Of a DNA stretch of 64,000 nucleotides, positions 5,953-14,309 are shown piece after piece. The translations under genes and the position numbers were made by a program. Below the pieces are notes generated by a model. The model made no database searches. It worked only from the letters and a program-made list of their open reading frames with translations, and was not told where the DNA came from. Numbering within the stretch: the stretch's first letter is position 1; each line of letters opens with the position of its first letter. Source of the DNA: Enterobacteria phage RB33; sequence record KM607001, one strand, 5' to 3'.

Positions 5953-6450
5953 TTATGCACAGCGAGCTTTGCTATAGTGTTTAATCCAACTTTCAGGAAT
6001 GACTTTGTATGTTCCTAAAAATACCGCATTGTACAGCTTAACACCATCTTCTACCCATTGATCGGTAATGTATGCACACATAGCGCGAGTACGATGTTTT
6101 TGAACAACCCCTTCCTCATCTTCGGTAAATTCGAATTCATAAGGAGCAATGAACTTAATAGCCTGACCGAGTTTCCACTTAAAGTCTACACCTACGTGCG
6201 AAGTATCAATCGTTTCAATTCCTTTAGCAGGAACAGCTTTCAAAAACGCAGATTCAAGAAATTTCGCACGAACATAGCCAAACTGAGGTTTAGACTTTCC
6301 ATCTTTAGGAATGATACGCACTTTTACTTCAGAATCTTCATCTTTAACACCATGCTTAAGCTGAATGCTTACAATTTCGACCAATTTTCCTGCTGCTTTA
6401 GAACGGGATTTATCAGATACACGAGCAATTTCACCAATATTAATAATCAT
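5953..6450 (-). CDS. motB: MotB-like protein (165 aa)
   Basis: size and position between the 39 region and dexA as in T4; shares a C-terminal domain with the next ORF. Confidence 0.55.
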   Translation of the reverse strand: MIINIGEIARVSDKSRSKAAGKLVEIVSIQLKHGVKDEDSEVKVRIIPKDGKSKPQFGYVRAKFLESAFLKAVPAKGIETIDTSHVGVDFKWKLGQAIKFIAPYEFEFTEDEEGVVQKHRTRAMCAYITDQWVEDGVKLYNAVFLGTYKVIPESWIKHYSKARCA

Positions 6451-6526
6451 AGTTATCTCTCACTTGTTAAAAAGATTTTATACTCCACAGGACCATTATA
6501 CTCTGGTCCCAAGAGTTTGTAAACTA

Positions 6527-7066
6527 TTAATTCAAAATAGCTACCACTGCACTACGAGGTACTACGCTAAAATCACCTGCATGAACAACGTTCAGAAGTT
6601 CAACGCCATCTTCAATCCATTGGTCTGTTACCCAGCCACAGACCGAAATAAATGGAGTCTTGATAGCTACCGCACGAGTCAGAAGGTCAGTAGGATCAAC
6701 TTCTTGGAAGAGGATAATCTCTGCTTCAAAGACTATAGTTTTAATTACTTCATCATTATCTAAGCGGTGTACTCGAATCGCATAAGCTTTATTCTTATTA
6801 TACCAGTTACTTTTTGAAAAGCTTTTAACCACAAACTCGCCTTCACCAAAAACATTAGTCAATGCTTTATAACCCAAATTTAGTTCAGTAGTTTTAATTT
6901 CAGTTTCAACCAGTTTGTAGGTTTTGCCGATTTCAATAGCGGTAGTCATAGTAGGTTCCTTAATTTCCAGTGGTTTAACAGGGCATACATAAGTGCTTAC
7001 AACATCAAAATCAATCAGTTTAGCTACCGGATTTGGTATGTATTCAGGATTATAATTAAATTTCAT
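6527..7066 (-). CDS. MotB paralogue (motB.1 position), 179 aa
   Basis: C-terminal region (VTDQWIEDGVELLNVV) similar to ITDQWVEDGVKLYNAV of the 5953..6450 product. Confidence 0.55.
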   Translation of the reverse strand: MKFNYNPEYIPNPVAKLIDFDVVSTYVCPVKPLEIKEPTMTTAIEIGKTYKLVETEIKTTELNLGYKALTNVFGEGEFVVKSFSKSNWYNKNKAYAIRVHRLDNDEVIKTIVFEAEIILFQEVDPTDLLTRAVAIKTPFISVCGWVTDQWIEDGVELLNVVHAGDFSVVPRSAVVAILN

Positions 7067-7068
7067 AA

Positions 7069-7688
7069 TTATCTCATTTCAATAAAATCTACGAGTTCGG
7101 CATAGGATTTACGGAACATTACTTGATGCCCACCAATGATAACTTGGTCATCTGGTACTTCGTATACAGCAAGATAAAATCCTTTCGAAGATAATTCTTC
7201 CCGCTCTTCTCGCGTGAACCATCTCATCATATCATACTCACTAGCGAAAGCAAAATGATAAAGAGCTATAAACCATCCTGGAATATGATATTCTACTCCA
7301 ACATAATCTTTCTTGAACTTAGTATTAATTACTATATTAGCGTTTTTAACTAATAGTTTATCTTCGTGTGGTAAAGGAATTCTTTTATTATTATCGCTAT
7401 GATGCGATATTCTACTCCAACATAATCTTTCTTGAACTTAGTATTAATTACTATATTAGCGTTTTTAACTAATAGTTTATCTTCGTGTGGTAAAGGAATT
7501 CTTTTATTATTATCGCTATGATGCATAAAATTAGGTCTGTCATAACCTACGTGTAATAGCCACTCTTCACTCCATGAATCTATTATACTCCTGTACGGCG
7601 TTATTTGAACACAAAGATTTCGACGTATTGTTATAGCATCTTCATAATCAAGAATACTAAACGATGATTCAACACGATAAATTTTCAT
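7069..7688 (-). pseudogene. motB.2-position gene disrupted by a 119-bp tandem duplication (frameshift, premature TAG at 7350)
   Basis: ORF from ATG 7688 reads through copy 7406-7524 in frame, then out of frame in copy 7287-7405; removing one copy restores a 166-codon ORF ending at TAA 7069-7071. Confidence 0.6.
7287..7524. repeat. perfect tandem duplication, 2 x 119 bp
   Basis: 7287-7405 and 7406-7524 are identical base for base. Confidence 0.9.
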
Positions 7689-7751
7689 TTTATTATCCTC
7701 AGTAGCTATGGTGTTATAATACCACAACTAACCGAGGAAGTAAATAACTTT

Positions 7752-8435
7752 TTATCGTTTTGTTGGAAGAGACAGAGGATCGCAATCTTCCTCTGACGGA
7801 GCATCTTCAAGACCCATAGCGTATCGCAAAGCATACTTCATCATCAGGATGTCTTTCGCACAGTCATGAATAGAATTATGCGCAACGAATCCATCTAAAG
7901 TTCCCTTTGGAAGGGGACACGTTGTCATATCACGAACAAGCAGAAGTGCTTCAATTCTGGTACGAATATCACGCTGATTCCAGAATTTACATGGTTCTAA
8001 CTTAAATGTATCAAGCTCATTCTCGGAAACGCCGTTAAGACGTTGAATATCGCGAATGAGATCGACTAAAATTGGAAAATCAAACGACATTCCACGGCAC
8101 CAGCCTTGAGATTTCCAAGGATCGATATTATGTGCATTGATGTAATCATTAAATTTTGCAATACCATCAATGGTGCTTACATCTTCATCTGATGGTGCAA
8201 TATTTTTTCGAGCTTCAGGAGATTGATTCTTCCACCATTCGATAGTGCTTTTAGTAAAAAGACGATGTCCTTTTTGGCTTTTTAAATCAAACTTGATTTT
8301 AATGCCGCGTGAAACTAATTCATCAAATGTTTCAACTACTTCTGGATTAGGGTCAAAGGCAATAACAGCCAAATCAATAACAGCTGCCTTTTCACCGCTT
8401 CCCATTGTTTCAAAATCTATAATAAAATCAAACAT
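7752..8435 (-). CDS. dexA: exonuclease A (DnaQ-like 3'-5' exonuclease), 227 aa
   Basis: 227-aa ORF with DEDD-type motifs (FIIDFETMG, HNSIHDCAKD); length as T4 DexA. Confidence 0.85.
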   Translation of the reverse strand: MFDFIIDFETMGSGEKAAVIDLAVIAFDPNPEVVETFDELVSRGIKIKFDLKSQKGHRLFTKSTIEWWKNQSPEARKNIAPSDEDVSTIDGIAKFNDYINAHNIDPWKSQGWCRGMSFDFPILVDLIRDIQRLNGVSENELDTFKLEPCKFWNQRDIRTRIEALLLVRDMTTCPLPKGTLDGFVAHNSIHDCAKDILMMKYALRYAMGLEDAPSEEDCDPLSLPTKR

Positions 8436-8677
8436 TAAATTTTCCTCGCTAAATCGCGAATTTGGCCTACAGTATAGTCTTGAATATAAACTTTATTAAT
8501 AGGTTCATCAATAAATTTTGCCATAGATTCAATATCTTTTTGCATCTCTTCAAGACTGTATATTATCTTTAAAGCTTTTTCGCGAATAGTAATATTTTCA
8601 GGACCAGAATTTTTCTCAATGACAGCTTTAACATTTGTCATAAGAGATTTAAACTGACACCAACTTAATTCAATCAT
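8435..8677 (-). CDS. hypothetical protein
   Basis: ORF in track; start moved to internal ATG that overlaps the upstream stop (ATGATTGA). Confidence 0.45.
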   Translation of the reverse strand: MIELSWCQFKSLMTNVKAVIEKNSGPENITIREKALKIIYSLEEMQKDIESMAKFIDEPINKVYIQDYTVGQIRDLARKI

Positions 8678-13542: not shown

Positions 13543-13746
13543 TCACGATTTATCCCCATAGATGTCTCTCATCAATTTAAGCGCTGAGCGTTCTAGTTTC
13601 TTTTCTTTCTCAGCACTAATCATTGATTTCATCCATTCTTCTGATTCGTTCTGCATTTCTTTATTTGCTTGTTCAACCCAACCATCGTCAATGTACATTG
13701 AGTTTGGTCTATTGAACCATTCAAACATTTTCTTCAGAACTTTCAT
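13543..13746 (-). CDS. hypothetical protein, 67 aa
   Basis: ORF in track; its start lies inside the proximal copy of the 91-bp duplication. Confidence 0.55.
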
Positions 13747-13868
13747 TTGTTTTACCTAAAACAACAGTAGGAGCATCGTCAATGTACATTGAGTTTGGTC
13801 TATTGAACCATTCAAACATTTTCTTCAGAACTTTCATTTGTTTTACCTAAAACAACAGTAGGAGCATC
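13683..13868. repeat. perfect tandem duplication, 2 x 91 bp with 4-bp CATC junction microhomology
   Basis: positions p and p+91 identical for p = 13683..13777. Confidence 0.9.
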
Positions 13869-14309
13869 ATCAAATTCATGAATTTTTAGCAAATTTGGAT
13901 GTAAACTATTCCATACAGAAGAAATAAAGTATGATAACGCATCTTCACTCGCAATTATAAATTTGTTTCCTTTGTCTATTTTCCAGTTATATACTGAATC
14001 GTACGAATAAAAAGATAAGGGTTTATCATTATATTGTTCTGCGCTAACATTAATGTATTCGGATTTAGTAAATGCTTCAATTGCTCTAAATGGAATATTT
14101 GGTACAGTTTCAATAATACCAATCTTTTTAAGTTTTATTTCAGCATCTTCTGGAACTGGCATTGAAACGAAATTTTCTACGAGATACATTGGGTCACAAT
14201 AACCCTTATCAATCATTACGGCTACAGTAATTGGAACATCTTTAGCAAACGACATGCTATTACTGCTAATATACATTTCAAACAAAATCGCTTCCATAAT
14301 TTTCCTCAA
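13812..14309 (-). CDS. hypothetical protein, 165 aa (mrh position)
   Basis: ORF in track; C-terminus and stop lie in the distal copy of the 91-bp duplication. Confidence 0.55.

Follow-up and report, generated by a model that had tools for sequence, protein, structure and literature searches.

Introduction

When a gene is broken in a deposited genome, is it also broken in the phage? This question is raised by motB.2 of Enterobacteria phage RB33 (KM607001), which is interrupted by a perfect tandem repeat of 119 bp in the window analysed here, a stretch of 64,000 nucleotides that corresponds to positions 1-64,000 of that record. The initial annotation of the DNA proposed that the single-copy state is ancestral and that the repeat is either a recent, unselected duplication causing loss of function or an assembly artefact. 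In this study, we have examined the repeat, its closest relatives and two sibling genomes, and we conclude that the duplication in the record is very probably an artefact of genome finishing.

The provenance of the record is central to this question. For RB33, MiSeq read pairs of 250 bp were assembled by Velvet (K51, K57 and K63), which gave one contig. This was processed further in Geneious, where reads were mapped iteratively, and the result was 'oriented ... to start with rIIA' (PMC4293622). The phage has been placed by NCBI in the species Tequatrovirus RB32; RB32 itself was sequenced by the Sanger method in 2006.

Results

Structure of the repeat and its effect on motB.2

The two 119-bp units (Table 1) are identical, as had been claimed. 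TRF reports a period of 119, with 2.0 copies, 100% match and a score of 476, and the self-match run covers 119 bases and extends no further in either direction, such that there are exactly two copies. At the edges, 7286 is t where 7405 is c, and 7525 is a where 7406 is g; the microhomology at the repeat boundaries is 0 bp on both sides. The novel junction lies at 7405/7406 and reads GCTATGATGC up to the join and GATATTCTAC beyond it. A perfect match of 119 bases cannot be ascribed to chance.

Table 1. Coordinates of the repeat, of the reading frames around it and of the other features discussed in the text (positions are those of the window).
Feature	Position	Strand	Details
Other MotB paralogue	5953-6450		
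Downstream MotB paralogue RB33_010	6527..7066	-	Identical to RB32ORF010c
Whole motB.2 locus	7069..7688	-	620 nt deposited; 501 nt (166 codons) minus one copy
Orphan 53-aa ORF, MotB.2 C-terminal remnant	7069..7230	-	AIT74649.1, RB33_011, UniProt A0A097J636
Truncated motB.2 ORF	7350..7688	-	112 aa; AIT74650.1, 'hypothetical protein RB33_012'
Copy 1 of the 119-bp unit	7287..7405	.	In the minus-strand reading, promoter-distal and out of frame
Copy 2 of the 119-bp unit	7406..7524	.	In the native motB.2 frame
dexA	7752-8435		
dda codon 78 difference	10024	-	GCG (Ala) in RB33, GAG (Glu) in RB32
Native 91-bp tandem duplication, mrh/srh boundary	13683..13873	.	2.1 copies; common to RB32 and RB33

The locus lies, as had been described, between the MotB paralogues and dexA. 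Translation confirmed the predicted frameshift in full: from the ATG at 7688 the deposited ORF encodes 94 native residues followed by 18 frameshifted ones (...EYRIIAIIIKEFLYHTKINY), and it ends at the TAG at 7350-7352. With one copy removed, the frame runs for 166 codons to the TAA at 7069-7071, with the ATG of the next gene (7066) 2 nt further on. In a comparison with relatives, the product of this single-copy frame proved to be identical to RB32 MotB.2 (ABI94835.1). The start of the orphan downstream ORF corresponds to the internal Met113 of MotB.2.

The Shine-Dalgarno region upstream of the motB.2 ATG (7689-7702, minus strand) contains GAGGAT. In T4, the RegB endoribonuclease cuts only two intergenic GGAU sites, one of them being that of motB.2 (PMC1702504). 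On the strength of these two observations, motB.2 is probably an early transcript under RegB regulation.

RB33 is an RB32-like phage with one additional repeat

The best phage match was RB32 (DQ904452.1 / NC_008515.1), with 100% identity, the matching region being 1,882 bp in that record as against 2,001 bp in the query. RB32 has one copy of the unit, and its motB.2 is annotated as an intact gene of 166 codons. A base-level comparison of the window with RB32 positions 1-63,881 showed only two differences, namely the additional 119 bp and a single substitution in dda (Table 1). The GCG of RB33 at dda codon 78 is also present in T4, T2, ECO4, SH7 and PYps14T, and the Glu78 of RB32 sits within the conserved KEASTIHS helicase motif (DQ904452.1, NC_008515.1). 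The RB32 base is probably either a Sanger error or a mutation private to that stock. As RB33 Dda, unlike that of RB32, matches the family consensus at Ala78, the RB33 sequence is an independent read of the RB32 lineage and not an edited RB32 record.

This bears on a suggestion prompted by the resemblance of the sequence to RB32 plus an insertion, namely that the repeat was introduced after deposition, for example by an in-silico edit of the RB32 record. However, the fragment proteins are those of the deposited RB33 entries in GenBank and UniProt, which refutes an edit of this kind, and the substitution in dda restores a consensus residue, as a random edit would not. We therefore give the suggestion almost no credence.

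The genome of RB33 is 166,007 bp long and that of RB32 is 165,890 bp, a difference of +117 bp. The published similarity of the two phages is 99.93% (PMC4293622), equivalent to approximately 116 differing bases, and this is essentially the 119-bp repeat. Given these two figures, RB33 has no room for a second duplication of at least 47 bp, and thus the 119-bp repeat is the sole candidate for a join of the genome's own contig ends.

The junction is private to RB33

A 34-bp query across the junction gave 0 matches in 50,697 phage records (a collection without KM607001). The junction also gave 0 matches in IMG/VR, JGI metagenomes and GTDB genomes and was not found in 42 related loci. An 80-bp junction query gave two-piece matches only. 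As a positive control, a 34-mer across the 91-bp duplication of the RB32 lineage (Table 1) retrieved exactly the two RB32 records, and the negative result for the 119-bp junction is therefore meaningful. We also sought independent assemblies of the RB32 lineage through exact matches to the products of neighbouring genes and found none but RB32 itself, in an index that also misses RB32 proteins which are indexed. The related loci that carry motB.2 align without gaps to the single-copy version. The proposal that the single-copy state is ancestral is thus upheld, as RB32 and every gene-bearing relative examined have one copy.

A perfect tandem repeat can in principle be reverted by recombination, and the duplication might accordingly be viewed as a functional or programmed element, for example a switch in which motB.2 is silenced when a copy is gained and restored when it is lost. 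Nothing specific points to such a role. The repeat is present in one record only and is absent from all relatives examined, the two copies are identical, which leaves no time for selection to have acted, and there are no associated signals: a regulatory scan of 6400-8500 found 11 promoter-like sites where 9.0 were expected, which is the background level, and no terminator-like sites. We regard a switch as extremely improbable.

MotB.2 is conserved, although some relatives lack it

Comparison with ten relatives gave dN/dS values of 0.04-0.16 for motB.2, and the gene is therefore under purifying selection. There are 88 close homologues of MotB.2, mostly of 165-170 aa, and 32 of the 36 invariant columns in the family lie at residue 96 or beyond, in the part removed by the frameshift. 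For the sequence as written, loss of function is therefore a sound reading of the initial annotation, resting on both the selection and the position of these columns. Homologues that naturally end with the truncated C-terminus would have refuted the initial annotation, and we looked for these and found none; the short entries were proteins cut off at contig ends, gene calls with a short N-terminus or products of unrelated frameshifts.

MotB.2 belongs to PHROG 1106 and to the Pfam family PF26820 (Phage_T4_Y00F). The single-copy product matches PHROG 1106 over residues 1-165 (E 9e-56), and the match to PF26820 is a precomputed one; the ORF as deposited retains only residues 1-94. Sequence searches of a local Pfam copy, NCBIfam and the PDB gave no match. 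A profile search recovered 406 relatives, mostly of 110-160 aa, with 'YRVE...GPY' as a common N-terminal motif and 'YhFGF...WF...ER...GF...YEV...G..Q..F' as a common C-terminal domain, and all ten relatives tested fall in PHROG 1106, a family without known function. Two residues, R5 and W117, do not vary at all, and another three (E7, Q149 and F152) hardly vary. MotB.2 is an early protein that is conserved, and its family is widespread among phages.

AlphaFold predicts a confident single domain for MotB.2 from a 124-sequence alignment (pLDDT 89.1, pTM 0.84), as against a pLDDT of 40.9 from a 20-sequence alignment. In BFVD, the same fold is found in uncharacterized proteins of many unrelated phages. 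The predicted fold weakly resembles that of ADP-ribosyltransferases, and we treat this as a lead and not as a finding; an hhalign comparison of MotB.2 with ModA and ModB, which are ADP-ribosyltransferases of phage, gave a probability of 0.24%, with no detectable profile similarity.

The gene has been lost in several relatives. In T2 (AP018813.1; fetched locus 2666-2848), all that remains of motB.2 is an 11-codon remnant (MKIYRVEFIV and a stop), and the gene is absent from two further contigs, of metagenomic or Logan origin (L013 and L019). T2 is also without the second MotB paralogue. In a gut-metagenome contig (L008, approximately 7790-7800), one nucleotide is deleted from the A-run directly after the motB.2 ATG, reflecting either a frameshift or a base missed in sequencing. 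As its absence from T2, L013 and L019 shows, motB.2 is dispensable, and a real duplication within it would be tolerated. The main alternative to an artefact is that a tandem duplication arose recently, was neutral or nearly so and became fixed in the RB33 stock, making RB33 a natural loss-of-function variant of RB32 for motB.2. These gene losses, together with the deletion in L008, favour this alternative.

A genuine duplication in the same lineage

T4-type phages do make tandem duplications, which is a further point in favour of a real event. In T4, tandem amplifications are bounded by microhomologies of 6-10 bp, one copy of which is left at the junction (Srikant, Guegler and Laub, 2022, PMC9391042). 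The RB32/RB33 lineage carries a duplication of its own, with a unit of 91 bp, at the boundary of mrh and srh (Table 1). The boundaries of this duplication share CATC exactly (4 bp) and 8/9 bases overall (CATCGTCAA vs CATCATCAA). It spans the overlap between the end of mrh and the start of srh, leaving both genes intact, and creates a chimeric 38-aa ORF (RB32ORF024c, which is RB33_025) composed of 21 N-terminal residues of srh and 17 C-terminal residues of mrh. A search of the phage collection found the 91-bp duplication in no phage record other than RB32. It has been seen in two independent sequencings, those of RB32 and RB33, and it looks genuine, unlike the 119-bp repeat; real duplications of this type thus do arise in the lineage. 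For the latter, the 0 bp of boundary microhomology, as against the 6-10 bp typical of T4, argues against a real duplication, as does the single copy found in RB32. Furthermore, it is established that T4-type phages recombine homologous sequences readily, and a perfect repeat of 119 bp should readily be lost in this way.

Sibling genomes carry equivalent duplications in essential genes

The study that described RB33 (PMC4293622) also covered ten sibling genomes, and we scanned two of these, RB59 and RB27, for perfect tandem duplications with a period of 15-1500. Each genome contained exactly one. In RB59 (KM607003), the duplication is of 56 bp (152443-152555) and lies within gene 34, which encodes the long tail fibre; the unit length equals K57 minus 1. 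As deposited, this gene stops at codon 580 and is split in the annotation into two CDSs, RB59_245 and RB59_246, but with one copy removed it has 1,289 codons, the same length as T4 gp34. In RB27 (KM607000 / NC_025448), the duplication is of 47 bp (92015-92108) and begins 2 nt past the ATG of the small terminase gene (gene 16). Here the deposited frame meets a stop after 21 codons, and with one copy removed it runs for 164 codons and encodes an N-terminal sequence equal to that of RB59 gp16; the record annotates an N-terminally short gene 16 (92132..92554). Both duplications are perfect, at 2.0 copies with no more than 1 base of chance extension, and neither length is a multiple of 3. Their junctions occur only in their own records (for RB27, KM607000 and NC_025448).

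Genes 16 and 34 are conditional-lethal loci in T4 and are essential. With gene 34 frameshifted, a phage could not be propagated on E. coli B. As the frameshifts in these essential genes would be lethal, the 56-bp duplication of RB59 is an artefact of an assembly join, and the 47-bp duplication of RB27 is almost certainly one too. The presence of one such duplication in each sibling scanned argues that the pipeline leaves end overlaps untrimmed. It also weighs against a real duplication in RB33, for which the 119-bp repeat, within a total excess of +117 bp over RB32, is the only join-artefact candidate on offer.

A separate observation from the RB59 record is that gene 22 is frameshifted after ...VAEMEE and that rIIA is annotated as two CDSs.

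Seven further genomes (RB3, RB5, RB6, RB7, RB9, RB10 and RB68), described as 99.99% similar (PMC4293622 Table 1), fall into two size classes, of 168,394-168,395 bp and 168,401-168,402 bp. The two classes are 6-7 bp apart, matching the difference between 62 and 56 (K63 minus 1 and K57 minus 1), and these records may also carry untrimmed overlaps that derive from different values of k.

Discussion

T4-type genomes are circularly permuted, and de novo assembly yields a linear contig with overlapping ends. We propose that the linear contig of RB33 was cut and rejoined in order that the record should begin at rIIA, and that an overlap of 119 bp between its ends was left untrimmed, in which case the overlapping sequence would appear twice, head to tail, where the old contig ends met. 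Those ends would have fallen inside motB.2, at 7287-7524, and the gene caller would then have annotated the two pieces of the gene as RB33_012 and RB33_011. Under this proposal, motB.2 is most probably intact in the phage itself, with 166 codons as in RB32.

The length of the repeat requires comment. Neither k nor k-1 of the assemblies gives 119 bp (the k-1 values for Velvet K51, K57 and K63 are 50, 56 and 62), and this is a point in favour of a real duplication. The 47 bp of RB27 is also not a k-1 value, such that an overlap of k-1 fits RB59 only. As 119 and 47 bp match no k-1, it must be assumed that the contig ends were additionally extended or trimmed in Geneious. Artefactual terminal repeats of k-mer length have been documented on phage contigs (PMC9331655, PMC10914622). 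An overlap of length k from MEGAHIT was considered as a source of the repeat in RB33, since 119 is in the k-list of that assembler, and was rejected, as Velvet at K51, K57 and K63 had been used (PMC4293622). It is only because of the sibling controls that the end-overlap mechanism outlived the MEGAHIT idea.

A real duplication would also account for the position of the contig ends, because a perfect 119-bp repeat, being longer than k, would break a Velvet assembly, and contig ends would be expected there in any case. Even so, when the siblings, the pipeline, the lengths and the junction are considered together, we judge a real duplication to be unlikely. Of the two origins put forward in the initial annotation, therefore, the assembly artefact is favoured over the recent unselected duplication. 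If the duplication were real, the RB33 stock of the Krisch laboratory would be a natural motB.2 knockout that differs from RB32 in essentially nothing else (a single further substitution across the 63.9 kb compared), and the two phages could be used directly as a pair in the search for what MotB.2 does.

If the repeat is a finishing artefact, its biological weight is small, as motB.2 is then most probably intact in RB33. The consequences for the databases are more practical. Three records from one study (KM607001, KM607000/NC_025448 and KM607003) appear to carry join duplications that break genes, and all of these probably need correction. The fragment proteins are now in nr, UniProt and BFVD (for example, A0A097J636 and A0A097J657), where they can mislead counts of pan-genomes and of pseudogenes, as well as inferences of 'natural knockouts'. 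Rotation of the linear contig of a circularly permuted genome turns an untrimmed overlap into an internal tandem duplication. Such errors in rotated phage genomes can be detected cheaply by scanning each record for one perfect tandem repeat that has two copies and is private to it.

Several known systems can be set beside the repeat in RB33. Like the tandem amplifications of T4 and the 91-bp duplication, which together range from tens to thousands of bp, it is arranged head to tail and lies among the early genes of a T-even phage; unlike the T4 amplifications, with their 6-10 bp, and unlike the 91-bp duplication, it has 0 bp of microhomology and has been seen in one sequencing only. It resembles the duplications in RB59 and RB27, in that it comes from the same pipeline and is perfect, private, gene-breaking and of a length that is not a multiple of 3. 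However, those duplications lie in essential genes, whereas that of RB33 lies in a dispensable one, where the argument from lethality cannot be used, and the RB59 length is K57 minus 1 whereas that of RB33 matches no k. Finally, the repeat resembles the artefactual terminal repeats of de Bruijn assembly in being perfect, private, present in exactly two copies and without homology at its boundaries; it differs from simple terminal repeats in that rotation to rIIA would have moved the overlap inside the record, where it looks like an internal duplication.
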